A stretch of 64,000 nt of DNA from Gemmatimonadaceae bacterium (GTDB lineage: Bacteria; Gemmatimonadota; Gemmatimonadetes; Gemmatimonadales; Gemmatimonadaceae). A program made the translations under genes and the position numbers. The notes under the pieces were generated by a model. The model worked only from the letters and a program-made list of their open reading frames with translations. It was not told the origin of the DNA and did not search any database. The stretch lies in NCBI GenBank assembly GCA_051859245.1, contig JBHYGA010000007.1, forward strand, positions 64,001 to 128,000, given 5' to 3'. Positions 674 to 53,501 of the stretch are shown one piece after another. How positions within the stretch are numbered: position 1 is the first letter of the stretch; every line of letters begins with the position of its first letter.

Positions 674-674
674 G

Positions 675-1796: not shown

Positions 1797-1865
1797 TGGC
1801 TGGAGCCAGGCACCGGCTGCGCAAGGCACGGGAAGCGGTGTAGGCGGGGCATCAAACAGCCCGTG

Positions 1866-28365: not shown

Positions 28366-29628
28366 TCAGGGAGTGATGCTGCCAGATCGCCGGTTGCGCG
28401 GATCCGCCAAGGTGAGGGTATATGCACGCGCCACGATGTATCCGTCGTCGTCTTCTGTAAGGCGCCCAACCACGCCCGCACTCACTCGCACTGCGCGAAA
28501 CGGAAGTTGCAGACTCGCCAGACGAACGCCGAGCTGCGGGTCGATCACGTCAACGGTGCTGTGATGGCGTCGGTCTTGCACGGAAAGCGGAATCGTGCCT
28601 TCGCCTGGCGCTTCGTATTTCGCTCGATACTCTGTTTGCAGCGCGATGGTGTCGTAACTTGGCGCGGGAATCACGCGCGTGATCCACAGCAGGCCAGTGC
28701 GGTCGACGTCGAGCCATTGGTCGAGTCGAAGACCGCGCGTGCTTGGCATGTATGGTGTCGCGACCGAGCGTTTCTGTGTAGCTGCGGCCGCGATGTCATT
28801 CTCGTTCATGATCAAATCCGGTTCATCAGTGCTACGCACACCGAATAGTTTGCGAGCAACGCCGACCGAGTCATGCCATTCCAGGCGATTAGTGCCGCGT
28901 CCGAATGTCCAGAATCCGCTGCGTACGTCTGCCGTGACGCTCGACTCGATTCGCGGGTGGAAGTACACCTCCTTGCCTTCAACCAGCACTCCCATCTGCA
29001 CACTCGTGTTGAGCGGCGAGAAGATCGCCACGCTATCCTCGATCTGGCCATTCGCGTTGATTCGCAACACATACTTGGGCGGCTCGTCCTGGATGAACGG
29101 CACATAGCGTTGCGCGAGAAACCGTGTGGGATGCGATACGGTTGCCGCCGAGGGACGCACGCCGTCGATCACGGCACTGCGCACGAACTCTCCGTCAGGC
29201 GAATACACTAGCAAGACGCGATCTGCGCTGAACACATAGAGCGAGTCGCCGGCACCAGCAAACGTCGCACGCGTCATCACATACTCGCCTGGTCCGCGTC
29301 CCAGAGTGCCGATGCGTCGCACAAACGTACCGTTGCTGTCGTACTGCAGGATCGGCTGATTGACCCAATCGTGAAACAGCAGATAGTAAAAGCCGCGCGA
29401 ATCGCGCAGCAAGTCGGGCTCACGCAGCGGAATTACGGAATCAGTGGTGTTCCCAAAGCGAATCGAGTCGCTGATCGAGAGCGTGCACTCGGCGCAGCCA
29501 GATGCGAGCTCAATAATGGCCGTGTCGCGTTGCGCAACAACGTCAGCCGTGGCAGCGTTCGGCGATTCGGCGCAGGCGAGCAAGATGCTGCCAAGCAGCG
29601 CGGCGGAAATTCGGCGAGTGCGATGCAT
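28366..29628 (-). CDS. 6-bladed beta-propeller (NHL-like) lipoprotein
   Basis: LLAC lipobox, YDSNGTFVRRIGTLGRGPGEY, GDSLYVF, YSPDGEFVRS. Confidence 0.75.
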   Translation of the reverse strand: MHRTRRISAALLGSILLACAESPNAATADVVAQRDTAIIELASGCAECTLSISDSIRFGNTTDSVIPLREPDLLRDSRGFYYLLFHDWVNQPILQYDSNGTFVRRIGTLGRGPGEYVMTRATFAGAGDSLYVFSADRVLLVYSPDGEFVRSAVIDGVRPSAATVSHPTRFLAQRYVPFIQDEPPKYVLRINANGQIEDSVAIFSPLNTSVQMGVLVEGKEVYFHPRIESSVTADVRSGFWTFGRGTNRLEWHDSVGVARKLFGVRSTDEPDLIMNENDIAAAATQKRSVATPYMPSTRGLRLDQWLDVDRTGLLWITRVIPAPSYDTIALQTEYRAKYEAPGEGTIPLSVQDRRHHSTVDVIDPQLGVRLASLQLPFRAVRVSAGVVGRLTEDDDGYIVARAYTLTLADPRNRRSGSITP

Positions 29629-29709
29629 GACCGATCTTCGGGTCTGTACGGGAGTCGCGCAAGTATTGCTGCAACGCGTAGCCACGTGCGCTGACAGCGA
29701 GCTGAAGTG

Positions 29710-30144
29710 TTAGCGCAACTGCAGAGGGTTCGTAAACCGCAGCCCGCGAAACCGCGCAAAGTCACCGTCTGCCGAATACAGTTCCGCACCGTGTTCAATG
29801 GCGAGCGCGGCCAGGTGTGCGTCGGAACTCAGGTTGCCGGCTGTGCCCGATTCGGTGAGTAGTGCTCGCAGAATGTCCCAGTGACGATCGCCCGGTACGA
29901 CGAGCTCCACATTGGGATGCGCGAGCCATTCATGGATCATGGCCAACGCACGCTCCACCCCGAGCGGTCGGTCGAATACGCGGGCATTCGTGGTTAGCCG
30001 CAAGAAGCCGAGCACGACCGTCCATGACAGGCCGATCGTTTCATCACCGTCGAGACTGTCTTCGAGCCACGCTTTGGCTACGTCGTGCCGTGGCGCGTCG
30101 CGGTTGATGGCGTACAGCAGCAGGTTCAGGTCAACGACGCGCAC
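29710..30144 (-). CDS. vapC: VapC PIN-domain toxin
   Basis: VVDLNLLLYA, GFLRLTTN, GNLSSDAHLAALAIEHG..SADGDFARF; GTG start 30144 just after the antitoxin stop. Confidence 0.9.
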   Translation of the reverse strand: MRVVDLNLLLYAINRDAPRHDVAKAWLEDSLDGDETIGLSWTVVLGFLRLTTNARVFDRPLGVERALAMIHEWLAHPNVELVVPGDRHWDILRALLTESGTAGNLSSDAHLAALAIEHGAELYSADGDFARFRGLRFTNPLQLR

Positions 30145-30145
30145 G

Positions 30146-30406
30146 TTACTTTCGCAGCTGCAGGTCGCGCCGGTGCTCTTCGTCTTCGAGCGCGTCAGCG
30201 AGCTGCAGCGCGCGGTCCATATCCACGCGGGGTGCGCCGAGTGAAACCGTGTCGACCTGATAAGCAGCCCGCGGTTCGGCAACGCGTGCGGCGAGGCCAG
30301 CCCGAAGCGCCGTGTTCAGGAGCGCTTTCACGGTCGTGCCGCGGCGGACCGCTTCGAGGCGGAGCTGTTCGAGCAGAACGGGGTCGATATCAATGGTCGT
30401 CCTCAT
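30146..30406 (-). CDS. vapB: VapB antitoxin (ribbon-helix-helix)
   Basis: MRTTIDID..LL..LR..A...GTTVKALLN.ALR.GL; directly upstream of the PIN gene. Confidence 0.87.
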   Translation of the reverse strand: MRTTIDIDPVLLEQLRLEAVRRGTTVKALLNTALRAGLAARVAEPRAAYQVDTVSLGAPRVDMDRALQLADALEDEEHRRDLQLRK

Positions 30407-30410
30407 GAAA

Positions 30411-30448
30411 TGATGCTAACGCATCAATGGTATGATTGCAAGGCATCA
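30411..30448. promoter_or_regulatory. Probable VapB autoregulatory operators
   Basis: TGATGC-taac-GCATCA (30411-30426) and TGATTG-caag-GCATCA (30433-30448) immediately upstream of vapB. Confidence 0.7.
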
Positions 30449-30617
30449 CTCCTGCGCTCCTGAGGCCTCGTCTCCCTTACCGCCTCGGCTTGGCGCGCCT
30501 ACGTTTGCTGCCACGTGCTGCGCCCCGGTTGAAATATCGGGAAAAGAAGCCAGCGAGCATCACCATTTGAGCGCGGCTCCTGTCATTGCCACGCCGACCC
30601 GCCCCTTTGAACGCCAT

Positions 30618-31943
30618 ATGCGTCTCCAAAACCTGATCGCTTCCGCGGCTGCCGCGCTGCTCATCCTCGCCGCGCCGCCAACGATGGCCGCTCAGCCGTC
30701 CGCCGCCGCCGTGCTGCTCCGCGACATCGAATCACGGTTGCCTGGCGTGATGCCCAAAGTCGTGGCCTGGAGACGCGACATTCACGAACATCCCGAACTT
30801 GGCAACGAAGAGGTGCGCACCGCCGCGCTGGTCGCGGCGCATCTCACGTCGCTTGGGCTCGAGGTGCAAACGGGCGTTGGCAAAACCGGTGTGATTGGCA
30901 TTCTGCGCGGCGGCAGACCTGGTCCTGTGGTTGCGCTTCGTGCCGACATGGACGCGCTGCCCGTCACGGAACTTGTCGACCTGCCGTTTCGCAGCCGTGT
31001 GCGTACGCAGTGGCAGGGCGCCGAAGTTGGTGTGATGCACGCGTGTGGTCACGACAATCATGTTGCGATTCTCATGGGTGCCGCAGAAATACTCGTCGGC
31101 ATGAAGGCCACGTTGCCCGGTACCGTCAAGTTCATTTTTCAACCCGCTGAAGAAGGACTTGGTGGAGCGAAAGCCATGATTGCCGACGGTGCGTTACGTG
31201 CACCGGTACCGAATGCCGTTTTTGGCATGCACGTGTGGCCAACCGCGGTTGGTTCAATTGGTGTGCGGGCCGGCCCGCAAATGGCGTCGGCGGGCAACTT
31301 CTCCATCATCGTGAAGGGACTGCAGACCCATGGTTCGCAGCCGTGGTCGGGTGTGGATCCTGTTGTGGTGTCGGCGCAGATCATTCTGGGTTTGCAGACG
31401 ATTGCGAGTCGACAAGTGAACGTGGCGTACTTGCCGAGTGTGTTGACGGTGGGATCGATTCACGGCGGCAATCGCAGCAACATCATTCCCGACAGTGTGG
31501 TGCTCGTGGGTACACTGCGCACCTTTGACGACGCCATGCGCAGCGATATCGCGGCGCGCATCACGCGCACAGCCAAGGATATTGCAACGTCTGCGGGTGC
31601 GACGGCCATTGTGCAGATTGATGCGGGCGGACTCGTGCAAGCGAACGACACCTCGCTCACCGAGCGCATGCTGCCAACGCTGAAGCGGTCTGCGGGTGCA
31701 GGCGGATTTCAGTTGATCAATCCCATCATGGCTTCCGAAGACTTTCCGGAGTTTACGCGCGACATTCCGGGTGTGTTCTTCTTTCTTGGCGTGACGCCAA
31801 AGGGGCAGGATCCCGCGAAAGCGCCGGCCAATCACTCGCCGTTGTTCTTTGCCGACGAAGCCGCCTTGGAAACGGGCGTGCGTGCAATGTCGGCGTTGGC
31901 GACCGACTATCTCAGCGCAACAGGTAGTGTAAGCGGTAGGTGA
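30618..31943 (+). CDS. M20 family amidohydrolase (exported)
   Basis: RRDIHEHPELG, ALRADMDALP, MHACGHD, FQPAEEG, GMHV, ASEDF, NHSP; signal peptide. Confidence 0.92.
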   Translation: MRLQNLIASAAAALLILAAPPTMAAQPSAAAVLLRDIESRLPGVMPKVVAWRRDIHEHPELGNEEVRTAALVAAHLTSLGLEVQTGVGKTGVIGILRGGRPGPVVALRADMDALPVTELVDLPFRSRVRTQWQGAEVGVMHACGHDNHVAILMGAAEILVGMKATLPGTVKFIFQPAEEGLGGAKAMIADGALRAPVPNAVFGMHVWPTAVGSIGVRAGPQMASAGNFSIIVKGLQTHGSQPWSGVDPVVVSAQIILGLQTIASRQVNVAYLPSVLTVGSIHGGNRSNIIPDSVVLVGTLRTFDDAMRSDIAARITRTAKDIATSAGATAIVQIDAGGLVQANDTSLTERMLPTLKRSAGAGGFQLINPIMASEDFPEFTRDIPGVFFFLGVTPKGQDPAKAPANHSPLFFADEAALETGVRAMSALATDYLSATGSVSGR

Positions 31944-31990: not shown

Positions 31991-33904
31991 ATGTGCGGCA
32001 TCAGCGGTATCGTAACGCGCGACGTGCAACAGCCTGTAGATCGCGTGCTGCTGGAACACATGACCGACCTGCTCGAGCATCGCGGCCCTGACGGTCGCGG
32101 CTTTCATGTTGCGCCCGGTGTGGGGCTCGGCATACGCCGACTCAGCATTGTTGATCTTGAGACCGGCGACCAGCCGATCAGCAATGAGACGGGCACCGTA
32201 CATCTCGTGTGCAACGGCGAGATTTACAATGCACCCGAGTTGCGACAGGAGCTGCTCGCGCGCGGTCACACGCTCCGCGGACACTCCGACGTGGAAGTGA
32301 TCGTGCACTTGTACGAGGAGCTCGGCCTCGGATTCCTGTCTCGATTGCGCGGCATGTTCGCCTTGGCGTTGTGGGACCACGCTGCGCGCACACTGCATCT
32401 GGCACGCGATCGCTTCGGCATGAAGCCGCTCTACTACGGGCAGGCGTCAAACGGCTCGCTGGTGTTTGGTTCGGAAATCAAGTCAGTGCTCGCATCAGGT
32501 GTGTTGCCACGCGCGCTCGATCCGGCGGGCTTGAGCGACATTCTCGCAATTGGCGGACCGATGTTCACGCGCAGTGCGTTTCGCGGCGTGCATCAGCTCG
32601 AAGCGAGTCATTCGCTGTCCTTTCACGCGGGACATATCACCACGACAAGGTATTGGGATCTGGACTTCAGTCGCGCGGCGCCGAGTGCGTTGCCGCGGTC
32701 TGAGGGTGAGTGGGCAGAAGCGATCGCAGCCAAGTTGCGCGAGTCGGTGCACATCCATTTGCGCGGTGACGTGCCGGTGGCGGCGTATTTGAGTCCCGGT
32801 ATCGACTCCAGTATCGTCACCCGCTTTGCGACTGACGAGATGACTGGTGTGATGCGTACGTTTTCGCTTGGCTTTACCGATCCGGCGTATGACGAACTGC
32901 GCACGCAACGCACACTCGATGCGTTTCCCGGTCAGCGTCTTTCGGGCGACCGCGTTGCGTATCACGGCACATTGCTGGACCATCTCCCGGCCGCGATCTG
33001 GCACGAAGAGCAGCCGGTCACGTTGCAGTACTCTTGGCAGGCACTCGGTGCGGCCATGAAGGGTGAATACAAGGTTGCGCTCACGGGTCAGGGGTCTGAC
33101 GAAATGTTCGGCGGTTATCCGTGGCATCAGGTAGATCACAAGTTGAGGCACTTGTATGCGTTGCCGGGGCCAGTGCGTCGTGCCATGGCCAGGCATCTTC
33201 CGCGTATTTCGGGCAAGGCGAGGCGCGCACTCGCGGCGGATCCGGTCATGACCATCAAGCGCTACTTTGCGCTCAGGAGTCCGCACTGGAATTCGCTCAT
33301 GCCGCTGTTTCAACCGGCGTTGCGTGAGGAGATCGAACGCTCACAGCTCGAGCTGACGCTTCCGGGTGTGCCGGACGGATTCGAGCGTTGGGATCGCTTT
33401 CAGCGGTTCATTTACATCGAACAGCGCACGCGACTGCCGAGCTACATCAATCGCGGGCTCGACGCCTCAAGCATGGCACAGTCGATCGAACCACGATTGC
33501 CGTTTCTCGATCACGAGTTTGTGGAGTTGTGCTTGCACATTCCTCCGGCGCTACGGTATCGGCGCATGGAGAAACACATGCTTCGGCGCGCGGCAGAGCC
33601 CTTTCTTCCAGCAGAGATTGTGTGGCGGAAAAAGCGTGGACTGCAATCGCCGAGTGCTTCGTGGAGCGCAGAGCGTGGCACACCGCCGGCATTCGCACAG
33701 GAGTTGTTATCCGATGAGGTGGTGCGCGCAAAGGGCTACTTCCGTGCGGATGCGGTACGCGCGCTGCGCGACAAGCAGCCGCGCATTGGCGGGGCGCTCT
33801 CAGCCGTGCTGGGGTTTCATTTACTCGACGAGATGTTCGTGCAAGGGCGCGGGCAAATCGTGGAAGCGGTTAGCGAACGCTTCAGCTTCGGCACACTACG
33901 TTAA
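31991..33904 (+). CDS. asnB: Asparagine synthase (glutamine-hydrolysing) family amidotransferase
   Basis: MCGISG, HRGPD, RRLSIVD, NGEIYN, ARDRFGMKPLY, YLSPGIDSS, ALTGQGSDEMFGGY, RLPFLD. Confidence 0.9.
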   Translation: MCGISGIVTRDVQQPVDRVLLEHMTDLLEHRGPDGRGFHVAPGVGLGIRRLSIVDLETGDQPISNETGTVHLVCNGEIYNAPELRQELLARGHTLRGHSDVEVIVHLYEELGLGFLSRLRGMFALALWDHAARTLHLARDRFGMKPLYYGQASNGSLVFGSEIKSVLASGVLPRALDPAGLSDILAIGGPMFTRSAFRGVHQLEASHSLSFHAGHITTTRYWDLDFSRAAPSALPRSEGEWAEAIAAKLRESVHIHLRGDVPVAAYLSPGIDSSIVTRFATDEMTGVMRTFSLGFTDPAYDELRTQRTLDAFPGQRLSGDRVAYHGTLLDHLPAAIWHEEQPVTLQYSWQALGAAMKGEYKVALTGQGSDEMFGGYPWHQVDHKLRHLYALPGPVRRAMARHLPRISGKARRALAADPVMTIKRYFALRSPHWNSLMPLFQPALREEIERSQLELTLPGVPDGFERWDRFQRFIYIEQRTRLPSYINRGLDASSMAQSIEPRLPFLDHEFVELCLHIPPALRYRRMEKHMLRRAAEPFLPAEIVWRKKRGLQSPSASWSAERGTPPAFAQELLSDEVVRAKGYFRADAVRALRDKQPRIGGALSAVLGFHLLDEMFVQGRGQIVEAVSERFSFGTLR

Positions 33905-35223: not shown

Positions 35224-35379
35224 ATGTCGTTACAGCTACGACTCGAGGCAGACGAATCGCTGGCATACACCAAAGTGGGGAGCGTGCCGGCGGTGGTGCT
35301 CGTCCACGGCATTAGTCGTCGCTTCTTTTCTCGACCGTTGAGCCGCACACGCTCAATCATGCTCGATATTACGGAGTGA
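35224..35379 (+). pseudogene. N-terminal remnant of an alpha/beta hydrolase
   Basis: GAGGAG RBS + ATG, then LAYTKVGSVPAVVLVHGI followed by unrelated sequence and an early stop. Confidence 0.55.
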
Positions 35380-35382
35380 ACC

Positions 35383-35970
35383 ATGAGCACGTCTGAGCGA
35401 CACGCAAATATCTATGCCAATGCCGTAACAGGGGCCACGCCGAACCCGTTAATGCCAACGCCAGACGCGATTGATGAGGCGTTCGCGGACGGTGCAAACC
35501 GGGTGCTGTCCAATGCCGTAGAGCTGGCACGCGACCTTATCGGCGCGCACCAGGGAGCGGCTGCGGTCATGGTGAATCGTGATTGGGGTACGATCAGAAA
35601 ATTCTTTTCACTGTCAGCCAAATACGCTGCGTGGTCCGAGTACTCAACGCCGGCGACGGGAGTGGGCACCCACGCCTGGCTCATGGAGCAAACGGCGTGC
35701 GTGCGGTTCACGCAGGCTGAGCTTGAACAGCATCCCCATTGGCTGAACTTCGGTACGGAAGCGGGCAAGCATCCACCGATGCGTGGGTGGCTTGCGGTAC
35801 CGATTCGCGATCGCGCCGGAATCACCTGGGGATTGCTGCAGCTATCCGACCGCTACGAGGGAGATTTCACCGAGGACGACGAACAAAGATTTACTGCCTT
35901 CGCTGCACTGGTGGCGGAAGCACTCGAAGCATTGTGGGAGCTGCGAAACCTGCGGAAGCAGACAACGTGA
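35383..35970 (+). CDS. Stand-alone GAF domain protein
   Basis: ELARDLIGAHQGA...HPPMRGWLAVPI...GLLQLSD...DFTEDDE; no output domain. Confidence 0.82.
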   Translation: MSTSERHANIYANAVTGATPNPLMPTPDAIDEAFADGANRVLSNAVELARDLIGAHQGAAAVMVNRDWGTIRKFFSLSAKYAAWSEYSTPATGVGTHAWLMEQTACVRFTQAELEQHPHWLNFGTEAGKHPPMRGWLAVPIRDRAGITWGLLQLSDRYEGDFTEDDEQRFTAFAALVAEALEALWELRNLRKQTT

Positions 35971-35994
35971 TTGTCACCGAGAGTAATGCGAGGA

Positions 35995-36720
35995 CTAGAG
36001 AGACACTTCTCTGGTCGTCCCCGCATGCAGATCCGTCAGCAGCACGCGACGCGTTACCGAAAACGAGCCCATGTCAGCGTCGCCATTGATCAGAATGCCA
36101 CCAAAGCGCAGCAGCCAGCGCGATGGGAACCTGGTGCGTTCCACCAACAGATCGACGCGTGCGGCGATGGCTTCGCCGATGACCTCTGTGGCTTCCTTGA
36201 GCGGTTCGGTCGAGTTCAAAACACGTGCTGCCGACTGCAACAGCAGTTGCTCAATTGTTGCTTGCTGGTAATCGAGCTCCGACGGCGCTTCCTCGCGCAG
36301 CGACCCCGACTGCAGCTTGGCCAACGCCGCCCGCGCTGCGCCACAGCATCCCGATAGTGTCTGCTGCCCCGGTCGTCGGATCACACCAAGTGATCCGTCA
36401 CGCGACACACCGATGTGCGGTGCATGATAGATCACAATGCCACCGTCGTCGGGCACGTGGGCAGCAAAGGCAGCCATGCCCGTGAGTCCTGCATGCGGAA
36501 ATCCGTCCAGTCCGCCCAGGCGAAACGGTCCCAACATGACCTGGGCGCGCTTGGGGTATTCGAAGGCGTTGACATCATCACTGCAAATGGAATCGGCGAG
36601 CAACACGCGCTCCGCAGGCAACCCGCACTCGCGCTGCAACAGGTCCAGTACGTTGTGCACGGCGTCGTCGGTTGGAACGGCTGTCGGATAGTGTTGCCGA
36701 ACGGCGTCGAGAGCATTCAT
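35995..36720 (-). CDS. LCIB/LCIC-like (theta-type) carbonic anhydrase homologue
   Basis: ADSICSDD, LGGLDGFPHAGLTGMAAFAAHVP, APHIG, CCGA: the Cys-x-Asp / His / Cys pattern of the LCIB family. Confidence 0.78.
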   Translation of the reverse strand: MNALDAVRQHYPTAVPTDDAVHNVLDLLQRECGLPAERVLLADSICSDDVNAFEYPKRAQVMLGPFRLGGLDGFPHAGLTGMAAFAAHVPDDGGIVIYHAPHIGVSRDGSLGVIRRPGQQTLSGCCGAARAALAKLQSGSLREEAPSELDYQQATIEQLLLQSAARVLNSTEPLKEATEVIGEAIAARVDLLVERTRFPSRWLLRFGGILINGDADMGSFSVTRRVLLTDLHAGTTREVSL

Positions 36721-36771
36721 GTGGCGAACCCGCAGAAGTGAAAAGTGAACATCGGCCCTGCTACGTCTTGG

Positions 36772-37773
36772 TTACATGAGAACGTCATGAACGGGAGTCA
36801 GCGGCGGCGGAATGAGTTCTTCGCCGAGCATTTGTCGTAGATCGATTTCTATGGTGCGACTGAGCGCGGTAATGGGCACGTCATTCGCGCTTCCTTCAAA
36901 CGGGTTCTCGGTGCTTTCTCCCACCTTCTCCAGCGCCAGGAAGAGCCACGTGACCAGCACGCTGAACGGAATGGTGAGCCACACGCCACCGTGATCGAGC
37001 TTCCGAAATTCCTGCAGCATGCCAAAGGGCACGAGCCACACGAAGAGTCGGATAAACCAGTAGTTCAGCGTGGCGAACTGACGTGGATACGGAAAGTTCT
37101 TGATGCGTTCGCAGCGACCTTGCAGATCGAGCAGCTCGGCGATCTGTCTTGCGAGCGCCACGTGTTGGTACGTGTCAATCGCCGCTGCCGACGACAGCTG
37201 TTTCAATCGATCCGATTGTATTGACATGAGCGCCGTGGCGCGGTTTGCCTGCGACAAGACAAACGCAGCCTCCGCTTCACCGAGCAGGTTGGTTAGCGCC
37301 TGGGCGAGCGCACCGTCATGTTCCGACACGGTAAATCGCGTCTGCTGAAAGCGGCGATTGTCCGCACGATCAAAGTTTTCCCAGCTGCGGCGCTCGCGCA
37401 GTTGGTAACGAAGCGCGGTAAGCCACGCGACATGCCGATAGATCAATGTCTGCGGCGAATCGGTGATCGCTGGTTTGCGATAGTCCACCAGATCACGCGC
37501 CATGATCCCCCACGCGCGACTGGCATTGACAATGCCACCCCAGATTTGCCGAGCCTCCCACAGGCGCGCGTACGTCGCATTGTTGCGGAAACCCACCGTG
37601 AATGCAGACGCGGTACCCAGCATCGCCACAGGAACCCACGGTATCTCCACCCAGCTCCATCCGAGGCCAACCGAAAGAGCCATCGGGACAAACGCAACCA
37701 CCAGCATGTACAGCGACTCGTTCCTGGTCCACAGGAGCACATCACGCACGCGATAGAGGCGACCTGCATACAT
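36772..37773 (-). CDS. Bestrophin-family (YneE/UPF0187-like) anion channel
   Basis: GFRNNATYARLWEARQIWG, CERIKNFPYP, ENPF...NDVP; four TM segments. Confidence 0.88.
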   Translation of the reverse strand: MYAGRLYRVRDVLLWTRNESLYMLVVAFVPMALSVGLGWSWVEIPWVPVAMLGTASAFTVGFRNNATYARLWEARQIWGGIVNASRAWGIMARDLVDYRKPAITDSPQTLIYRHVAWLTALRYQLRERRSWENFDRADNRRFQQTRFTVSEHDGALAQALTNLLGEAEAAFVLSQANRATALMSIQSDRLKQLSSAAAIDTYQHVALARQIAELLDLQGRCERIKNFPYPRQFATLNYWFIRLFVWLVPFGMLQEFRKLDHGGVWLTIPFSVLVTWLFLALEKVGESTENPFEGSANDVPITALSRTIEIDLRQMLGEELIPPPLTPVHDVLM

Positions 37774-37987
37774 GAAGTGTCCCGGTCTGGTAAACACGCA
37801 ACTTCGCGACGCGCATAGTCTGCTCGCTCACGTGCATATGTGCGTCGCACCAGTGGACGGTGCGAACTATGACGTAGGTGATATGCGCCTATTTCTCACG
37901 CGCTGTATATCCAACGACAGACGCGCAATCGCTGATGTATCTGTATGCTCAGCGTGGTATCGCACCCGGTAATCACTCGAGGACGCC

Positions 37988-38815
37988 ATGCTGCATCGAT
38001 GGGTTCTGCCCGCCATCCTTCTGGGAACAGCACCGCTGCCAGCGCAGCGCGCCGAGCCGAACGTGGTCACGATCGAGGTCGCGGATTACGCGTTCCTTCG
38101 GTTGCCGCCGACCATTCCTGCGGGTTTGACGACCATACGACTGGTCAACAAGGGCAAGACGTTGCATCACCTGCAACTGAACCGACTTCGCGATGGCAAG
38201 AGTGTCACCGAGATGATCAAGGACTTCACGCCTGGCGCGCCGCTTCCTGCATATATGTCCGGGAGCGGTGGGCCGTCAGCCGCGTGGTCCGGACAAACGA
38301 TTGAAGCGACGATGATGCTCGAGCCAGAAACCTACGGCGTCATCTGCTGGGTTCCGGCCGCTGATCATCAGTTGCATTTGCAGAAAGGTATGCTGGGACA
38401 GATCACGGTCACGCCAAACAAAGCAGTTGCCCCAGCACCGGAACTGCCGAAGGCCGATGTGACGGTCACGGCGTTCGATTTCAACTACACGATGGACAAA
38501 CCCATTACGGCGGGCCGACGAACCGTTCGTTTTGTGAATCGTGGGCCACAGCACCATGAGTTCGTGTTGTTGCGACTGGCCAAGGGCAAAACAGTACGGG
38601 ACGCGAGTGCGTGGGCCGAGCGTGGCCAAACCGGTGAGCTTCCGGGCGTAATGCTCAGCGGTGTTGCCGCGATTGCGACAGGCTCCGCCGCAAACGTGAC
38701 CAACTCGTTCGAACCCGGCGAGTATGCCATCCTGTGTTTTGTGCCGAGTAACAGCGACAAAAAAGGACTGCCACATGTGCACTATGGCATGATGAAGCAG
38801 TTCACCGTGCAATAG
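37988..38815 (+). CDS. Exported tandem cupredoxin-like protein
   Basis: Two repeats with N.G...HH and C-x-V-P...H-x3-GM; signal peptide; GAGGA RBS. Confidence 0.7.
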   Translation: MLHRWVLPAILLGTAPLPAQRAEPNVVTIEVADYAFLRLPPTIPAGLTTIRLVNKGKTLHHLQLNRLRDGKSVTEMIKDFTPGAPLPAYMSGSGGPSAAWSGQTIEATMMLEPETYGVICWVPAADHQLHLQKGMLGQITVTPNKAVAPAPELPKADVTVTAFDFNYTMDKPITAGRRTVRFVNRGPQHHEFVLLRLAKGKTVRDASAWAERGQTGELPGVMLSGVAAIATGSAANVTNSFEPGEYAILCFVPSNSDKKGLPHVHYGMMKQFTVQ

Positions 38816-38852: not shown

Positions 38853-39245
38853 ATGCCAACAGCAGTTGAAATTGCGCAACGGTACATCGAACACACCTAC
38901 GCGGGGCGCATCGCTGACGCGTCTGCTCTCCTCACTGACAACGTGCAGTTGGTCATGGGAGGCGGCGGCGCGATGGTTGGTCTTTATGAAGGCAGAGACG
39001 CGTACTTCGCCGCATTCGGCCGCATGATGTCGTTAACGAATGGCACGTATCGCACGGTTGGTGATACTCGGTGGGTTGATGGTGGTGATATGGCCATTGC
39101 CTTCGCCAAGGAACAGGTAACGCGCAATGGCACGATTATTGAGCTCGATCGTGTGATCACATTCGAGTTGCATGGCGCGCTGATTCGCCGTGTGCGTGTG
39201 TACGAGGGCGATCCGGCCGCCGCAGACAGTGCTTTCGCTGCCTGA
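38853..39245 (+). CDS. SnoaL/NTF2-like protein
   Basis: Short protein with LLTDNV, GLYEGRD, FELHGALIRRVRVY pattern. Confidence 0.75.
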   Translation: MPTAVEIAQRYIEHTYAGRIADASALLTDNVQLVMGGGGAMVGLYEGRDAYFAAFGRMMSLTNGTYRTVGDTRWVDGGDMAIAFAKEQVTRNGTIIELDRVITFELHGALIRRVRVYEGDPAAADSAFAA

Positions 39246-39269: not shown

Positions 39270-41648
39270 CTAGCGCACCGGTTCGGAGCTCCACGACACG
39301 AGCATCTGCGTACCGTACGCTGGATCACTCTGCCACGCGACCTGTCCGCCAATGAGCGTCGCGCGCTGGCGGATGCTTTCAAGGCCATAACCGCCGCGAC
39401 CCGGCTTTGCCGGATCAAAGCCACGACCATCGTCTGCAACGAGCACTGTTGTTTCGTCGGACGTTTGCGACAGTTCGATTCGCAGCTGTGAGGCATTGGC
39501 ATGCTTCACCACGTTCGACGTCGCCTCCTGTACAATGCGGAACAGGTGATCTTCGACGTGTGCGGGTAATGGATTCCACAGTGGTGGGTGCTCCATGGAG
39601 ACCCTCAGCGCTGTACCCTGCGTCAGCTGCTGCACCAACCGCTCCAAGCCGGCGGGAAGTTGTTGATGCAACAACTCTTGCGGTCGCAGGGCGCTGACGG
39701 CTCGTCGCGCTTCATTCAAGCCATGCACGGCCATGGTCATGACGTCTGAAAGAAGCTCGCTGCGCCGGATCTCCATCGGTAGTTGCTTGATCTGCATTTG
39801 AATCGCAACGAACGCTTGTGCAATACTGTCGTGTATCTCGCGCGCCAGCCGATTCCGCTCGGCGAGCACTGCGGTTTGTTCCGCATGACGACGCGTCGTT
39901 GCACTCTGCCGATTCAACTCGAGCGTGAGCGCCACCAGTTGTGTGAGGCTCTGGATGTGCTGACGTTGCGATTCCGTGGGCGCCACGTGCTCCATGAAGA
40001 CCATGCCGATAAAACCAACGACACGATCACCAACGCAGAGGACTTGCACCGCATTCGCGGCATGCTGCTCCTGCCTGTGCCATACCAGCGTCGCGGGCAG
40101 ATAGGCGGCTTCGTCCACCTGTTCACGCAACGATCGCCAGACTAGCTGATCGGATGCCCGGAGTCTGCGACTGACTGGTCCGTACATATCAAACCCTTGA
40201 CGGAACGAGATGGGATCTCGCTCCTCGCCCTCGGGAGAGAACCGGCCATCACGGTAGGAACCGACCAAGCGCATGATCCCGTCGTCTTTTTCGGAGCGAA
40301 ACAGCCAGACGGTGTGCGCGTTTGCGAGTTGCTGAATAGCGCTCATGCAGGCGCTGAACATGTGCGTCTCATCGCCGGATTCGGCGAGTGCCTGCGTTGC
40401 CGCGCGGAGTGAGGCGTTGGCACGCGCCAACTCGGCAACCTGGGCCTGCTCCGCACGCTGACGTTCCGCTTCAATGAGCATGCGCTGCGCTGAATCGGCG
40501 AGCCGGTCCTGATAGATTGCGAGCGCTGCCATGTGGGCCAACGCACGAACGTGCGGATAGTCCACGTTGGACGCTTCTTCTCTCGATACGAACAACTGCG
40601 ACAACACGCCAACGAGCTGATCGCCCGCCATCAGTGGCAAATCAATTTCGAAGTGCAGGTGATCACAGTGTCCCCACGGCATCGCCAGGGGGCAGGAGCC
40701 GGTGCGCTCCGCCTCAACACGGTCCATACTGACCAGCTGCTCCCGACCAAGCGCATGCGTCCAGCGTGCCGTGAGTTCGGCGGGCAGCGGTTGAAACCAC
40801 GGCGCCTCATCGTTGGGCTCCGCCACAAAGAACGGTCCACCTTTACTGCCACTGACGACCAGTCGCATCGTGGCATCCGATTCGTCGTACAGAAAGATGC
40901 CGCCGGTTGATGATCCGCTGACCACCGACACTTCGCGTACGATCGTCTTGAGAAAGTCGAGCAGCGTGGTGCCGGGCATCAACGACTGCGCGACCAATCG
41001 CAACGACTCGTTCGCAGCGCCGAGTTCGCGCGACCGTGATTGTTCGCGGGATAGAAGATCCCGTTCCATGCGAAGGCGCTGTTCACGCTCCTCCAGCAGC
41101 TCGGTCAGCGCGTCGTCGCGCAGCATGGCAGCCGCCACGCCGTCAGCGGCGGTACGGAGCACGCCGGCAATCGCGGCATCGTAAGCGAACTCTGACGCGA
41201 ACCCGAGTGATAGCCACGCAATCGTGCGGCCGGAGTGCACCACCGGCACGAGGACGTTGGACTTTCGCCCCGCGGCGTCCCAGTGGTAGATGGTCTGAGG
41301 ATCGCGCAGGTCGGAGCGTTGTGTCCACACGACTTCGCCAGCCTCGAGCGTCTCGACCCACCGCTTCACGTCGGTGCTGTCGGGAATCGCAAAATCAGCG
41401 CGCGGCAACGGCGAGTGCGGATCGCGAGTCCATCGCGACATCACGCGCGCTCGACGCGTCGTTCCTTCGAGGCGGCGCCCTAACATGGCCGAATCGGCAC
41501 CGGCCGCGCTGCCGAGATGGCGCAGCCAGGCGTGAATGCCCTCGGAAAGACGATTCGATTCGATCAACAACCGCGACGCACGAAGAACCCCTTCAAGCAG
41601 TCGAATCAGCAGAGCCCCCTGGAAGCCTTTCATCCCCACGCAGAACAT
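39270..41648 (-). CDS. Cytoplasmic multi-GAF sensor histidine kinase (HisKA_3/NarX type)
   Basis: ERNRLAREIHDSIAQ, RIVQEATSNVVKHA, ADDGRGF, GYGL; three GAF-like blocks separated by coiled coils; start uncertain. Confidence 0.88.
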   Translation of the reverse strand: MFCVGMKGFQGALLIRLLEGVLRASRLLIESNRLSEGIHAWLRHLGSAAGADSAMLGRRLEGTTRRARVMSRWTRDPHSPLPRADFAIPDSTDVKRWVETLEAGEVVWTQRSDLRDPQTIYHWDAAGRKSNVLVPVVHSGRTIAWLSLGFASEFAYDAAIAGVLRTAADGVAAAMLRDDALTELLEEREQRLRMERDLLSREQSRSRELGAANESLRLVAQSLMPGTTLLDFLKTIVREVSVVSGSSTGGIFLYDESDATMRLVVSGSKGGPFFVAEPNDEAPWFQPLPAELTARWTHALGREQLVSMDRVEAERTGSCPLAMPWGHCDHLHFEIDLPLMAGDQLVGVLSQLFVSREEASNVDYPHVRALAHMAALAIYQDRLADSAQRMLIEAERQRAEQAQVAELARANASLRAATQALAESGDETHMFSACMSAIQQLANAHTVWLFRSEKDDGIMRLVGSYRDGRFSPEGEERDPISFRQGFDMYGPVSRRLRASDQLVWRSLREQVDEAAYLPATLVWHRQEQHAANAVQVLCVGDRVVGFIGMVFMEHVAPTESQRQHIQSLTQLVALTLELNRQSATTRRHAEQTAVLAERNRLAREIHDSIAQAFVAIQMQIKQLPMEIRRSELLSDVMTMAVHGLNEARRAVSALRPQELLHQQLPAGLERLVQQLTQGTALRVSMEHPPLWNPLPAHVEDHLFRIVQEATSNVVKHANASQLRIELSQTSDETTVLVADDGRGFDPAKPGRGGYGLESIRQRATLIGGQVAWQSDPAYGTQMLVSWSSEPVR

Positions 41649-41833
41649 ACAAAGCTCAGAACGGGACCGCCTCGCGTCCAGCCTGTCGTTTGTTCTGGTA
41701 CATACCTCGACCTTCGTCGAGGTGTTGCGGTGCGTGTACCGCGCCCATGTTATGCGGGGCGCAGCAGTATTGTTGGTGGGCACTCATTCGCGGAACCGCC
41801 GGTTCATTTGCCATGCGATTTGACGAAGCGACG

Positions 41834-42486: not shown

Positions 42487-43116
42487 CTACAGCGTGATCA
42501 AGCCGTAGCGCGCAGCCACTGCCACGGCTTCCGTGCGACTACTCACGCCGAGCTTGGCCAGGATCGAGGTCATGTGAAACTTGACGGTGCCTTCGGTGAT
42601 GCCGGTTGCCACCGCGATCTCGCGATTGCTTCGCCCCAAGGCCACCAGATTCAGGACACTGAGTTCGCGCTTTGAGAGTTCTGGCTTGCTGAGGCGATCT
42701 GCCAGCCGCGCGGCCACAAAGCCGCTCAGATATTTTTCACCGCGTGCGGCGCCGCGCACGCACGCCAGGATTTCTGCGGCAGGGGCGTCCTTGAGGAGAT
42801 ACGCCAGCGCACCAGCACGCATGCCGCGATAGATCTCTTCCTCTCCATCGAACGTCGTGAGAATTACCACATTCGCGTCAGGATCACGCGAACGAATTGT
42901 TCTGATTGCTGTCACCCCGTCTACACCTGGCATGCGCAAGTCCATCAGCGTGACGTCAGGTTGGGTCGCGAAATATTCACGAATCGCGTCATCGCCATTA
43001 GCAGCCTCCCCGACCACCACAAAGTTGGCGTCGCCAGCAATGATGCCAGCAACGCCAGCCCGAACGATCGGGTGATCATCGCAGATCAGTACGCGAATAG
43101 ACTCGTGCGCAAGCAT
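42487..43116 (-). CDS. NarL/LuxR family response regulator
   Basis: IRVLICDDH, MDLRMP, LTTFD, LSKRE...SNREIA...GTVKFH; GGAGG RBS before ATG 43116. Confidence 0.93.
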   Translation of the reverse strand: MLAHESIRVLICDDHPIVRAGVAGIIAGDANFVVVGEAANGDDAIREYFATQPDVTLMDLRMPGVDGVTAIRTIRSRDPDANVVILTTFDGEEEIYRGMRAGALAYLLKDAPAAEILACVRGAARGEKYLSGFVAARLADRLSKPELSKRELSVLNLVALGRSNREIAVATGITEGTVKFHMTSILAKLGVSSRTEAVAVAARYGLITL

Positions 43117-43407
43117 GGCGACCTCCCGGCGTGAGCCGAGTGCACAACCGGCAGTGCACGCCATGGCGGAGGTGCCCGACGTGCGCCCTTTCAATGGTTA
43201 ACGCTATGCCCAAGGGCATAGTTCGAGCTGGCGAGAGGTGTCGGCGCGGGGTGCCCATTCGCGACACGCGAATCGCAGCTGCGGAGACCTAACGTAGAAC
43301 GCGTTGCAACGCGACGCCACGCGTTTGTTGTCCTCAACCCTCCTGGCCATGCACAACCTCCTCCCCTGCAGCAGTGGAACGTGTCAACCACATCGCGCGA
43401 TCGCTTT

Positions 43408-48137: not shown

Positions 48138-48364
48138 TCGAGCATCCTCATGTCGTGTTGCGCAGGTCAAAGCACAGCCGAGCTGTATGCGCGGTGAGTA
48201 CACCTGACACGACATGGTGGCGTGTTTGTTCCCTACCTCACCGCCTCCCCCACTCGGCGATCACAGTCCGCCGTTGGTCCCACAGGTGTTGCGTCAGCGT
48301 GCTACGATACGCTGCGTGCTGCCTGCGAAGAACGCATACCGAAGGACTTTCATACTGTGACCTC

Positions 48365-48742
48365 ATGACAAGAGATCTCTTGTGGCTTGATAGTAGAGCC
48401 GGACTGGCAGTTGGTGCGGGATTGCTCGCACTCAACAGCTGGCTGAGCCCGTTGTATGGCCTGCCGCGCGAGTTTTTGTGGGTCGTGGGCGTGGCCAACG
48501 TGGGTTATGGCCTCTACTCGGGCTGGCTCTTCACTCGGCGGCCGCGTCCGCGTGGAGCGATTGTGGCGCTGGTGTTGGCCAATGCAGTGTGGGCGCTCGT
48601 ATGCATGCTGGCCGTATACCACTACGCGCATGTAGCGACGGTGTTTGGCGTGGCGAGCGTTGCGGGCGAGGGACTGTTTGTGGGAACGCTGGCGGCGCTG
48701 GAGTGGCGAGCTCGGGAGCGGTTGGTGATGCGACAGGTGTAG
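48365..48742 (+). CDS. Small hypothetical membrane protein
   Basis: Four hydrophobic segments, AN..Y..YS and EGLFVG.LA.LEW pattern. Confidence 0.65.
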   Translation: MTRDLLWLDSRAGLAVGAGLLALNSWLSPLYGLPREFLWVVGVANVGYGLYSGWLFTRRPRPRGAIVALVLANAVWALVCMLAVYHYAHVATVFGVASVAGEGLFVGTLAALEWRARERLVMRQV

Positions 48743-48865
48743 GCGTGAGCGCGCACACATGCGCTCGTCTTCTAATGACAACCGGGATTGCACTTCGGAT
48801 ACAACTTCTGGTTGCACTCGTCCCAACCGCGAAACCCAGACAAAGCGCCGCTCGTACGCGGGGGC

Positions 48866-50011
48866 ATGACGAGACGAAACAAAATCCTCGGCGGCACCGC
48901 GCTGCTCTTCGCCACGGCGTTGCTCACGCTCGCGCTGGTCCTCAGCTACGACGCGGCTTGCCCGGCTGCCGAAGCGCTGCCTCGTGAACGAACGGCGACA
49001 GCGCCGGACACAACAACGGAACGCGCGGCGAAGTCCATGCAGGCCGCGCGATATCACTGCTATGGCGATCCGCAGGTGATCACATGGGAGACCGTGCCAC
49101 GCCCCGACATTACCGACAGCGGTGTGCTCGTGCGTGTGCACGCTGCAGCCACGAATCCGCTTGACTGGCACTTCATGCGCGGCAAGCCGTACATCATGCG
49201 TTTGTCGAGCGGCATCGGTCGCCCGAACGACGAGCGGCTTGGCGCTGACTTCGCGGGTGTTGTGGAAGCCGTTGGCGCCAGCGTCACGCGCTTTGCACCA
49301 GGTGACTCGGTGTTCGGCTCGAGCAGCGGCGCGTTCGGGCAGTACGTTGTGGTACGTGAAGCAGGATCGATTGCGCGGCTGCCCAATGGTGTAAGTCTCG
49401 AGCAAGCAGCGGTCGTAGGCGTTGCGGCAACTACTGCTCTGCAAGCGGTGCGTGATGTCGGCCAGGTGGCCAGCGGGCAGCGCGTGCTCGTGAACGGTGC
49501 GTCGGGCGGCGTTGGTACGTACGCTGTGCAGATTGCAAAAGCCATGGGCGCGCACGTCACAGGCGTCGCCAGCACTCGCAATGTGGAGCTGGTGCAATCA
49601 CTCGGCGCTGACACGGTGATTGACTACACGCGCGACGACTTCACCACACACACCGCGCAATACGATGTGATCATCGACAACGTGGGAAATCACGCGCCAT
49701 CGGCACTGCGTCGCGTGCTCACCGCGACGGGACGCGTGGTCATGGTAGGCGGTCCGGATCGCGACCGCTGGCTCGGTCCGATACGATCATTGCTGTACGC
49801 GATCGTGTACGGCTGGTTCACCCGGGAGTCATTCAGCGGCTTGCTCGCCACAACCACTTCCGCAGATCTGTCGTACCTTTCCAGGCTGATGACGGAAGGC
49901 AAGCTGCGGTCCATTATTGATCGGCGATTCGAAGCGTCGCAGCTGCGTGACGCGATTGCGTATCAGGAGGCCGGTCGCTCGCGGGGCAAGAATGTGGTGC
50001 TGATTCCCTGA
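48866..50011 (+). CDS. Zinc-independent MDR/quinone oxidoreductase-like NAD(P)-dependent dehydrogenase
   Basis: VHAAATNPLDW, GADFAGVVEAVG, VLVNGASGGVGTYAVQ, LGADTVIDY; N-terminal TM/signal. Confidence 0.88.
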   Translation: MTRRNKILGGTALLFATALLTLALVLSYDAACPAAEALPRERTATAPDTTTERAAKSMQAARYHCYGDPQVITWETVPRPDITDSGVLVRVHAAATNPLDWHFMRGKPYIMRLSSGIGRPNDERLGADFAGVVEAVGASVTRFAPGDSVFGSSSGAFGQYVVVREAGSIARLPNGVSLEQAAVVGVAATTALQAVRDVGQVASGQRVLVNGASGGVGTYAVQIAKAMGAHVTGVASTRNVELVQSLGADTVIDYTRDDFTTHTAQYDVIIDNVGNHAPSALRRVLTATGRVVMVGGPDRDRWLGPIRSLLYAIVYGWFTRESFSGLLATTTSADLSYLSRLMTEGKLRSIIDRRFEASQLRDAIAYQEAGRSRGKNVVLIP

Positions 50012-50028
50012 TGCAGAGAGCGGCAGCT

Positions 50029-51453
50029 TCACTCAAGGCGGTCGGTTTCATGTGTGCCTGACAACACGTCGTGAAAACGACCCTTCCATGGCACGGTGAA
50101 AGAGTCCCAGATGTCCGGTTTGTTTGTACGCTGTTCCTTCATCTGCGCCATGGTCAGTACCTTGCCATTTGAGCGCGCATTGATGAGCCCGAAATGGATC
50201 TTCGCTCCGCTTACAGCGCGCGCAAGCTCGGTTGAGAAGAAGAGCGGATGCTCGCCGCGCGTGTGTCTGGCGACCGCACCGACCGCGTCCGCGACCGGGT
50301 GGTCGAAGCTCTTGTTGTCGCCAGACGAAACCACATTCGCGTGCGGGCGGACTTTCTTCAGGAACTGAACAAGAAAATCTGATGATCCGTGGTGGCACGC
50401 CTTCGCCACATCGCACGTGAACGGATTCGCGTCCCCGTAGTAATTGAAGAGATGCAGCTGCGCGGGAATATTGAGGTCACCGCCGAAGAGAAACGCATGC
50501 TCGCCGAAATGGAGCTTGAGCACAATGGAGTGACCGTTGCGCGTGTGTGACGAGCTGGGCCTCGGTATCTCTGCACGATCTCTTTTGTCCTGCCGCTTGA
50601 CCACAACATCTTCGGCGTCTGGAAACGTGACATATTCGACGGTGCCACTCGCCTTCGTTGGCACGGGGGCGAGCACCTCGATGAAGAGTTTGTCGTCGCC
50701 GCGCTCTGAAAAGCCTGGAAGTGTCTTGTTCCGCACGGTGATGCGCTTTGCGCTGCCTAGTCGCCCTGCAGCCTTCGCGTTGAGAGCGGCCGCCCAGAAC
50801 TTCTGAAACGTTGTGGGATTTCCTGTGGCTGTCAGGAGATGTCCGCTGTCGATGAGCGCCTTCACATCATTCAGCGTATCGATGGTCTCGACAAGCACAT
50901 GCTCAACCTGTCCATCGACGGTTGTCGTCTTCAGCTTGCCCAAATCAAAATCGGCGTGCGCCGGAAGATTCTTTTCCGAATAACGAATGATGCCGTTGTG
51001 GTATATGGTGTCGACCTCGAACGCCGGATCGTTCAGTACCGCGATGAACGCTTCGTAGTGATCCTGATCCGGATGGCTGACGACCATCGCCTTGATCTTG
51101 ACCTTTCCGTCCTGTGCGATGAGCGGCCGGTAGCGGTGCTTCATGAAGCGGTAGAGATGCTGGGCCGGGCCGCCATCAATCAGAACGAGCCCTTGTGGCG
51201 ACTCGATGATTGCGCCATCGCCCTGTCCTACATCGACAAAGAAAACTTTCAGCCCCGGATTGTCGCGCACGTCATCCTGATGCACCCATCCGCCCGGACC
51301 TTCTGAATGCGTAGTCACGTTCAGCCAGTCGCCCTCTTCTGCTTTGACGATCAGGTACGTACCGAGCAGGACGTGATTGAGCTTCTTCGCGTGTCGACTC
51401 GGATTCTCGTAGAGAATGGTCTCGGGTTTGTCACCGTATACTTCGGTTCGCAT
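50029..51453 (-). CDS. Stand-alone ComEC/Rec2-like metallo-beta-lactamase-fold hydrolase
   Basis: DVGQGD, LIDGG, SHPDQDH, N..S.VL, GGDL, HHGS, HP; short SH3-like N-terminus (GGWV); no membrane domain. Confidence 0.85.
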   Translation of the reverse strand: MRTEVYGDKPETILYENPSRHAKKLNHVLLGTYLIVKAEEGDWLNVTTHSEGPGGWVHQDDVRDNPGLKVFFVDVGQGDGAIIESPQGLVLIDGGPAQHLYRFMKHRYRPLIAQDGKVKIKAMVVSHPDQDHYEAFIAVLNDPAFEVDTIYHNGIIRYSEKNLPAHADFDLGKLKTTTVDGQVEHVLVETIDTLNDVKALIDSGHLLTATGNPTTFQKFWAAALNAKAAGRLGSAKRITVRNKTLPGFSERGDDKLFIEVLAPVPTKASGTVEYVTFPDAEDVVVKRQDKRDRAEIPRPSSSHTRNGHSIVLKLHFGEHAFLFGGDLNIPAQLHLFNYYGDANPFTCDVAKACHHGSSDFLVQFLKKVRPHANVVSSGDNKSFDHPVADAVGAVARHTRGEHPLFFSTELARAVSGAKIHFGLINARSNGKVLTMAQMKEQRTNKPDIWDSFTVPWKGRFHDVLSGTHETDRLE

Positions 51454-51571
51454 CGCAGTTCCCCCGTTGAGTCGGTACGCTTGACCGCTGACGATGACGC
51501 GCGCAGTTCACGTCCACCAGAAATGATTCATGGTGACGGCGTCTAGAGAATAGAGGGATTTTTTGAGGGCG

Positions 51572-51597
51572 GCGCTACCGGACTGAGCTATATCGGC
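51572..51597 (-). pseudogene. 5' fragment of a tRNA gene (Thr-like)
   Basis: Minus strand GCCGATA-TA-GCTC-AGTCCGGTA-GCGC = acceptor 5' strand and D-arm; no anticodon arm, T-arm or 3' end follows. Confidence 0.55.
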
Positions 51598-51660
51598 AAG
51601 ACGCGTCGGTACAGAGGGACGGTGCTATGGCCCGCAGTTTGTCGGCGCAGCGATGCAGGC

Positions 51661-52341: not shown

Positions 52342-52503
52342 GTTCCCACGCGCGTGACGTCTGTCCAAATCAAGGTGCAAGCGAGTCTCGTGAAGCAGGC
52401 AGGTGCGTAGGTTGCTCAAATGAGCAGCCGAGGTGACAGGTGCTCGATCGGTACGGCCGTGCGCGTTCGGTCCCACTCAGAAAACAGGAGTTCCGCGCCC
52501 TCG

Positions 52504-53412: not shown

Positions 53413-53501
53413 GAGGCGGTCGCTGGATCAGAGTGCGTTTCGGATCGAGAGAAAGTGCACGTGGCATGCGTCCACCGTCAATCCGCGTCGCGGGGGCGCT
53501 G

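Follow-up and report, generated by a model that had tools for sequence, protein, structure and literature searches.

Our analyses of a 64,000-nucleotide stretch of the genome of a soil-type Gemmatimonadaceae bacterium (GenBank assembly GCA_051859245.1, contig JBHYGA010000007.1, positions 64,001 to 128,000; the whole stretch is hereafter called the window) identified a gene for a bestrophin-family channel followed, on the same strand, by a gene for an LCIB-family carbonic anhydrase (CA), a pair characterized by its family membership, intact catalytic residues, fold, operon geometry and conserved linkage. We favour, with a confidence somewhat above even, the reading that a cytoplasmic LCIB-type CO2 hydratase is coupled to a bestrophin HCO3- channel and serves pH/ion homeostasis; the identity of the permeant ion (HCO3-), the way in which it flows and this physiological purpose are what we infer beyond the pair itself. 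A conserved bacterial operon of this kind constitutes a simple, genetically tractable system and a clue to the role of bacterial bestrophins, and could be used to test whether LCIB and bestrophin work as a unit, which ion is carried and in which direction it flows.

Background

To our knowledge, LCIB proteins have been studied almost only in algae, where both their activity and their partnership with bestrophins are still debated, and for bacterial bestrophins structures have been solved, with no physiological role known so far. No description of a bacterial LCIB-bestrophin operon was found in the full-text literature, the coverage of which is thin for subscription papers and which yielded only algal, plant or unrelated work. 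Review tables give theta-CA for no groups other than diatoms and green algae. In Chlamydomonas, LCIB and LCIC are reported to interact with BST1 and BST3, and a two-step model has been put forward in which LCIB makes HCO3- and BST moves it (PMC6708349); the same study describes a recapture loop in which BST1-3 move HCO3- toward the positive, acidic lumen.

The two-gene unit and its LCIB-family protein

A preliminary description of this DNA, made from its letters alone, had proposed a bestrophin gene and an LCIB gene on the same strand and 51 bp apart, and this arrangement was borne out by the open reading frames (ORFs) and by Pfam. The unit is composed as follows.

36772..37773, minus strand: bestrophin-family channel gene, 333 aa from ATG 37773, first gene of the unit
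36721..36771, minus strand: intergenic spacer, 51 nt between the bestrophin stop (36772) and the LCIB ATG (36720)
35995..36720, minus strand: gene for a 241-aa carbonic anhydrase of the LCIB family (theta-type, beta-CA-fold), placed second in the unit

The unit is flanked by opposite-strand genes on both sides and the 51-nt spacer holds no terminator-like site. Judged by this geometry, it is a self-contained, operon-like two-gene unit.

The LCIB protein matched Pfam PF18599 (LCIB_C_CA) with an E-value of 4.6e-57 and 193.3 bits (cut-off 25) over profile positions 3-219 of 223, and all the motifs quoted for it beforehand, namely SICSDD, GGLDGFPHAGLTGMAAFAAHVP, PHIG and CCGA, are present in its translation. 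NCBIfam offered no model for either this protein or the bestrophin. Among structures in the Protein Data Bank (PDB), it matched all solved LCIB-family chains, with E-values of 1e-25 for 6kfs, 6e-23 for PtLCIB4 (5b5y), 8e-12 for CrLCIB (5k5w) and about 1e-11 for Chlamydomonas LCIC. In the profile alignment, the chain of the PtLCIB4 S47R mutant departs from the wild type exactly opposite S47 of the window protein, and C46-S47-D48 is therefore the counterpart of the PtLCIB4 active-site stretch. Residues C46, D48, H88, R116, C125 and C126 are kept in 82/82 bacterial LCIB relatives, and H102 in 81/82; we take C46, D48, H102 and C126 (PtLCIB4 numbering) to be the Cys-His-Cys zinc ligands together with the Asp that follows the first Cys.

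The structural comparison agreed with the profile, so that profile and fold both match the LCIB family. An AlphaFold2 model of the LCIB protein reached a pLDDT of 84.2, with low confidence in the loops formed by residues 47-53 and 66-75, close to the active site, and Foldseek placed 6kfs (TM 0.84) and PtLCIB4 5b5y (TM 0.78) first, at 27-28% identity, followed by CrLCIB and LCIC (TM 0.65-0.70) and, at about 0.3-0.4, by classical beta-CAs. The modelled protein is thus predicted to share the beta-CA-like fold of the solved LCIB proteins. No signal peptide or hydrophobic segment was found in it, for which reason it is predicted to be cytoplasmic.

The bestrophin-family channel

The longest bestrophin ORF spans 36772..37797 and encodes 341 aa from an in-frame GTG at 37797, eight residues more than the gene given above; because the homologues begin at residue 9 of this long ORF, where the alignment shows a nearly invariant Met, ATG 37773 is the likely start. 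The protein matched Pfam PF25539 (Bestrophin_2) with an E-value of 7.9e-47 and 160.6 bits (cut-off 27), and the structures of the Klebsiella pneumoniae bestrophin KpBest (4wd7, 4wd8 and the 6iv entries) over residues 50-330 with an E-value of about 1e-24. Residues 20-38, 44-62 and 263-281 of the protein form clear hydrophobic segments. In a quick maximum-likelihood tree, with SH-aLRT support only, the LCIB-linked channels and four unlinked Gemmatimonadota copies nested inside them form one clade, which is separated by a very long branch from the host genome's third bestrophin, of the YneE type and encoded on contig 5.

The residues of the pore neck bear, if weakly, on selectivity. Taken from a HMMER alignment to KpBest with an inferred chain offset, the neck positions of the window channel read T-F-F, with the second and third hydrophobic and the first a Thr; the only I-x3-I-x3-F pattern in the KpBest chain falls opposite these window residues. 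The T-F-F neck recurs in 43/44 clade members, the remaining one having I-F-F, and the YneE-type paralogue, read by eye, has I-L-F. KpBest is described as a Na+ channel with the neck I62, I66 and F70, which I66F or I62R switches to Cl-, and the anion-selective bestrophins of animals as having an I-F-F neck and being highly permeable to HCO3- (PMC8496536). The earlier statement that bestrophins can pass bicarbonate has been demonstrated for the animal proteins only. The T-F-F neck leans, weakly, toward an anion channel.

Conservation of the pairing

The conservation of the pair was assessed in 83 loci carrying LCIB relatives, three found in species genomes and 80 taken as the best of 233 metagenome hits, with LCIBs 47-77% identical to that of the window; the sample is biased toward the LCIB clade of the window, as the scan used two of its peptide motifs. 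The loci were distributed as follows.

Bestrophin directly upstream of LCIB, same strand: 55 loci
Bestrophin directly downstream of LCIB, same strand: 2 loci
At least 300 bp of upstream sequence, no bestrophin: 18 loci
Upstream sequence too short to judge: 6 loci
Uninformative on both sides: 2 loci

A bestrophin is therefore adjacent to LCIB on the same strand in 57/75 informative loci despite the rarity of both genes, each present in about 1% of the 401 Gemmatimonadota genomes sampled, so that the adjacency is beyond chance and the operon-like unit suggested beforehand is indeed conserved. Since the loci are not independent, LCIBs were merged at 95% identity or more; three loci (L007, L048, L063) were dropped as duplicates, two (L011, L028) were lost to short alignments, and the window and L089-L091 were added. 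The resulting clusters had the channel upstream in 46 cases, downstream in three and absent in 15, with eight undecidable, i.e. a linked channel in 49/64 informative clusters. In relatives, the spacer between both genes, estimated from alignment ends, mostly measures 4-34 nt and does not exceed 125 nt. Carriers of the pair among the named genomes include members of the Gemmatimonadota and an Acidobacteria metagenome-assembled genome (MAG).

In the LCIB tree, the genes without a neighbouring channel are interspersed with the linked ones, in about eleven positions of which many have weak support, a pattern that fits repeated secondary separation from a paired ancestor. Almost every LCIB of the window clade travels with a channel, and the channel is CA-linked in 5/13 copies. 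The LCIB and channel distances correlate in a mirror-tree comparison (r 0.55, 0/2000 permutations as high, 38 pairs), a result to which we give no weight because any two genes of the same genomes would correlate. A complex prediction for a channel monomer and LCIB, with alignments as input, gave no answer (score 0.00) and weighs neither way on binding.

The window from about 35.1 kb to at least 46 kb had no DNA match in 14 same-genus genomes, in which positions 28377-31912 are conserved at 65-81%; lacking a same-genus counterpart to the right of about 35.1 kb, the pair sits in strain-specific DNA. This location, together with the patchy distribution of both genes, would suit neighbours that lack any functional coupling and are merely carried together on a mobile accessory island. 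We consider this very improbable, as the adjacency is still seen where identity has fallen to about 47% for LCIB and 36-38% for the channel, and holds in both gene orders and in varied flanking contexts. The G+C content of the window is about 60% throughout and does not deviate at the pair, and no mobility genes were seen near the pair in the Pfam annotation of the window.

Neighbouring genes in related loci

In 15/37 loci with at least 500 bp of sequence upstream of the channel, the bestrophin gene is immediately preceded, on its own strand, by a gene for a K+-channel-like protein of about 225 aa (Pfam Ion_trans_2, E 2.8e-11, filter TSIGFGD); the window unit lacks it.

K+ channel-bestrophin-LCIB three-gene unit: L021:2283-2960 (+); also L022, L029, L030, L043, L045, L047, L051
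K+ channel-bestrophin-LCIB three-gene unit, further loci: L055, L057, L061, L066, L069, L073, L075

The case for a module handling ion and charge balance is strengthened where K+ channel, bestrophin and CA share an operon. A related arrangement occurs in an Acidobacteriota genome (G826, locus L103), where a beta-CA gene (283-969, plus strand; Pro_CA, E 3.5e-49) lies directly upstream of a bestrophin gene (1072-1992, plus strand) whose product is 36% identical to the window bestrophin, the beta-CA filling the LCIB slot. A CA coupled to a putative anion/HCO3- channel seems a reasonable reading of the pair's function.

Several other neighbours were recorded. In L028 the K+-channel-like gene precedes LCIB with no room for a bestrophin between them. 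Bestrophin-less LCIBs were found with an Amidohydro_1 gene upstream in three near-identical loci (L058:29-1093, L065:1132-2499, L085:14-745) and a convergent one in L005:5770-7146, with a urease alpha gene about 1.6 kb away (L035:690-2411), and with an unusual upstream H+-pyrophosphatase bearing a C-terminal OmpA domain (899 aa; L077:19-1422, L080:1137-3836). No consistent alternative LCIB partner emerged among the LCIB-only loci. Tandem small SnoaL_2/DUF4440-like genes follow LCIB in six loci, L055 (4779-5180 and 5254-5655), L057, L069, L083, L086 and L054. A SnoaL-like gene is also present in the window at 38853-39245, and it was rejected as a conserved third gene since the copies of the other loci had no BLAST similarity to it.

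Distribution of both families

LCIB was detected in 2/61 close relatives (the host genome counted), in 0/14 other genomes of the genus and in 4/401 Gemmatimonadota genomes, the other three of which have the channel upstream in one case, downstream in one and not at all in one. With clade membership set at an E-value of 1e-30 or better, the channel clade occurs in 6/401 Gemmatimonadota genomes with seven copies, three LCIB-linked and four not, and in 4/401 Acidobacteriota genomes with six copies, one LCIB-linked, one beta-CA-linked and four without a CA nearby. No CA family was found among the flanking ORFs within about 1.5 kb of the four unlinked Gemmatimonadota copies. The host genome itself encodes, on contig 4, another channel belonging to this clade (G000:C4:828330-829373; L003 / L098); it is 48-51% identical, has a T-F-F neck, and is neighboured not by a CA but by a D12 DNA methyltransferase and an ORF without a Pfam match.

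The LCIB family comprises 1296 clusters at 90% identity (E-value 1e-5 or better) and 1160 representatives at 50% identity. By source name, LCIB homologues come from Gemmatimonadota, Nitrospira, Blastocatellia and Myxococcaceae, among others, and every one carries the annotation 'hypothetical'. Some long LCIB-domain proteins (P0129, P0165, P0156, P0134, P0153) are fusions to a DUF1275 membrane domain, Na_Ca_ex plus Calx-beta, cNMP-binding or PAP_fibrillin domains, and in many others the LCIB domain is present in two or three tandem copies; a bestrophin domain was found in 0/40 of the long representatives scanned, out of 150 listed.

Proposed mechanism and alternative explanations

In the mechanism that we propose, the cytoplasmic zinc LCIB-type CA would hydrate metabolic CO2 to HCO3- and H+, and a pentameric bestrophin of the distinct LCIB-associated clade would conduct the anion across the cytoplasmic membrane. 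Where the membrane potential is inside-negative and of the usual size, a passive anion channel can, by the Nernst argument, only release HCO3-. Because the cell interior is electrically negative, the bestrophin would be expected to export HCO3-; the anion would leave through the channel and the proton would stay inside, leading to cytoplasmic acidification. Outside, HCO3- could be reprotonated and CO2 could re-enter, a cycle that would import protons at the cost of electrical potential. The potential would in this way be converted into a pH difference, of use for instance at alkaline pH. In some relatives, the K+ channel of the same operon could carry the counter-ion, its K+ efflux resulting in an electroneutral release of KHCO3 equivalent to K+/H+ exchange.

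In a more specific form, the pair would be a membrane-potential-driven CO2/HCO3- proton shuttle, fed by CO2 diffusing into the cell, that acidifies the cytoplasm without an antiporter, and the algal LCIB-BST step would be its independent reinvention. We advance this version only tentatively and regard it as doubtful; if true, the shuttle would represent an unrecognised bacterial route of alkaline pH homeostasis, balanced in some lineages by the K+ channel of the operon.

The host's own carbon metabolism bears on the purpose of the pair. Its genome encodes four beta-CAs, and no alpha-CA was found in it. The only RuBisCO_large match of the genome reached at best 186.9 bits against NCBIfam models with cut-offs of 497-700, the OiaX decarboxylase model included, and is regarded as a Rubisco-like protein because this score is far below every NCBIfam Rubisco cut-off. 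The Rubisco-like gene (L088:10837-12069, minus strand; G000:C1:982851-983615) lies about 8 kb from a beta-CA gene (L088:2217-2915, plus strand). No carboxysome or Rubisco genes were found in the Pfam annotation of the window, and a non-autotrophic host is plausible, in keeping with the likely heterotroph of the preliminary description.

That description had left the choice between anaplerotic carbon supply and pH control. A role in inorganic-carbon supply would have the channel admit HCO3- and LCIB equilibrate it with CO2, feeding carboxylases (anaplerosis, biotin enzymes) at times of CO2 scarcity. In algae, both families take part in carbon concentration, and at least one LCIB homologue comes from what is, by name, a Nitrospira MAG, a CO2-fixing lineage. 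However, on textbook grounds a passive anion channel would not accumulate HCO3- against an inside-negative potential, the four beta-CAs can already provide HCO3-, no authentic Rubisco is present in the genome, and the pair, which none of the 14 other genomes of the genus contains, does not answer a core need. Carbon supply is therefore unlikely, and pH control is the more plausible of the two. The export of HCO3- with protons left behind would likewise point to pH/ion homeostasis rather than to carbon supply.

As the CA reaction is reversible, the same parts could also work in the opposite direction, as an acid-stress or electrical shunt. With the potential collapsed or reversed, HCO3- or Cl- would enter and the CA would consume protons, alkalinising the cytoplasm; ClC proteins have been proposed to act likewise in extreme acid resistance. 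In one locus (L006) the pair is neighboured by a Na+/H+ exchanger, an arrangement in keeping with a pH role whichever way the system runs. Nothing in the present data indicates a direction, however, and the window contains no acid-resistance genes; we regard such a shunt as quite unlikely.

A number of observations weigh against a CO2 hydratase coupled to an HCO3- channel. The neck mapping depends on the reading of a HMMER alignment and a PDB chain offset, the beta-CA-linked channel of L103 has the neck S-I-F and another unlinked copy T-I-F, and the neck argument is weak because the former is not T-F-F. No channel accompanies LCIB in 18/75 informative loci. On the channel side, the 13 copies found across 802 genomes comprise four LCIB-linked, one beta-CA-linked and eight without a CA within about 1.5 kb, the latter including the 48-51% identical paralogue of the window's own genome. 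K+ influx and HCO3- efflux both depolarise, so that the counter-ion idea needs K+ to exit. Finally, KpBest, the only characterised bacterial bestrophin, is reported as a Na+ channel (PMC8496536), and a review reports solved LCIB homologues without CA activity in vitro.

These last two points, and the presence of a K+ channel in the operon of some relatives, would also be compatible with LCIB being a non-catalytic or regulatory partner, e.g. a CO2/HCO3- sensor gating a channel that carries Cl- or a cation. We judge this credible but improbable, since the 82 relatives retain the full catalytic set (Cys, Asp, His and Cys, with H88 and R116) with almost no exception, which fits an enzyme better than a sensor. 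The inactive solved homologues are presumably CrLCIB/LCIC, and the closest solved relatives of the window LCIB, which are diatom-type proteins, are those that we take to be active.

Genomic surroundings of the unit

The features that border the unit in the window are the following.

37774..37987, minus strand: 5' non-coding region, common with the divergent cupredoxin-like gene; presumed promoter region on the basis of gene geometry
37988..38815, plus strand: cupredoxin-like gene, diverging from the unit
35383..35970, plus strand: stand-alone GAF-domain gene, converging on the LCIB gene

No sigma-70-like consensus was found in 35300-38300, where 1.3 are expected in shuffles, and the promoter of the unit is only presumed. 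A GAF-containing histidine kinase (39270-41783, minus strand) and a LuxR-type response regulator (42487-43194, minus strand) are encoded 1.5-5 kb upstream of the unit. Together with the GAF protein at 35383-35970, they are possible regulators, and do not recur next to the pair at other loci. The cupredoxin-like neighbour was discarded as a synteny anchor for an empty site, as its same-genus matches are 35-40% identical and paralogue-like. In one genome of the comparison (G002), the DNA matches are contiguous except for the absence of the asparagine synthase gene (31991-33904). Elsewhere in the window, a 1061-aa ORF (1866-5051, minus strand) and four consecutive ORFs of 271-474 aa (48350-53535) have no Pfam match at an E-value of 1e-6 or better.

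Comparison with known systems

Vectorial CA systems such as DAB and the cyanobacterial NDH-1 CupA/B resemble the present pair in that a CA-type protein is genetically coupled to an ion-translocating membrane partner. Those systems are energy-coupled pumps that accumulate HCO3- in autotrophs, whereas here a passive channel would operate in a host without authentic Rubisco. A further likeness is found in the beta-CA and bestrophin of L103, where a cytoplasmic CA is also encoded directly beside a bestrophin-family channel on the same strand, with the differences that the CA belongs to the Pro_CA family and that the channel is a 36% identical protein with an S-I-F neck.

Each protein also has its own closest described counterpart. 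KpBest belongs to the same Pfam family as the window channel, to which it aligns over residues 50-330, but has an I-I-F neck and conducts Na+, while the window protein has T-F-F and falls in a separate clade; we know of no described gene partner of KpBest. The LCIB protein resembles PtLCIB4/PtLCIB3 and 6kfs in its profile match, its fold (TM 0.78-0.84) and its aligned active-site residues, and differs from them in being a single-domain putative enzyme of 241 aa with no targeting peptide and 27-28% identity.

The same two protein families as in the bacterial pair meet in Chlamydomonas, where LCIB/LCIC and BST1-3 take part in the CO2 recapture of the carbon-concentrating mechanism. In both cases a soluble LCIB on the cytoplasmic or stromal side would be combined with a bestrophin in an energised membrane and with anion flow toward the positive side. 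Unlike the algal genes, the bacterial ones form an operon, and the bacterial host has neither Rubisco (the Rubisco-like protein apart) nor a pyrenoid nor a lumenal alpha-CA partner, so that the purpose of the pair is probably not carbon concentration.

A relation of the bacterial pair to the origin of the algal pairing, as had been surmised, found no support. The plant 'bestrophin-like protein' 7ek1, which we take to be VCCN1, was matched by the window bestrophin with an E-value of only 0.0025 and by the unlinked YneE-type paralogue with 7e-19. By similarity, the window channel is not of the thylakoid BST/VCCN1 type and is placed in another bestrophin clade than the algal one; common descent of the bacterial and algal pairings is not supported in this comparison, made with the single plant structure 7ek1, and the bacterial pairing appears to have arisen separately. 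If so, the same enzyme-plus-channel logic would have been adopted twice, which bears on the rebuilding of carbon-concentrating parts in crops.

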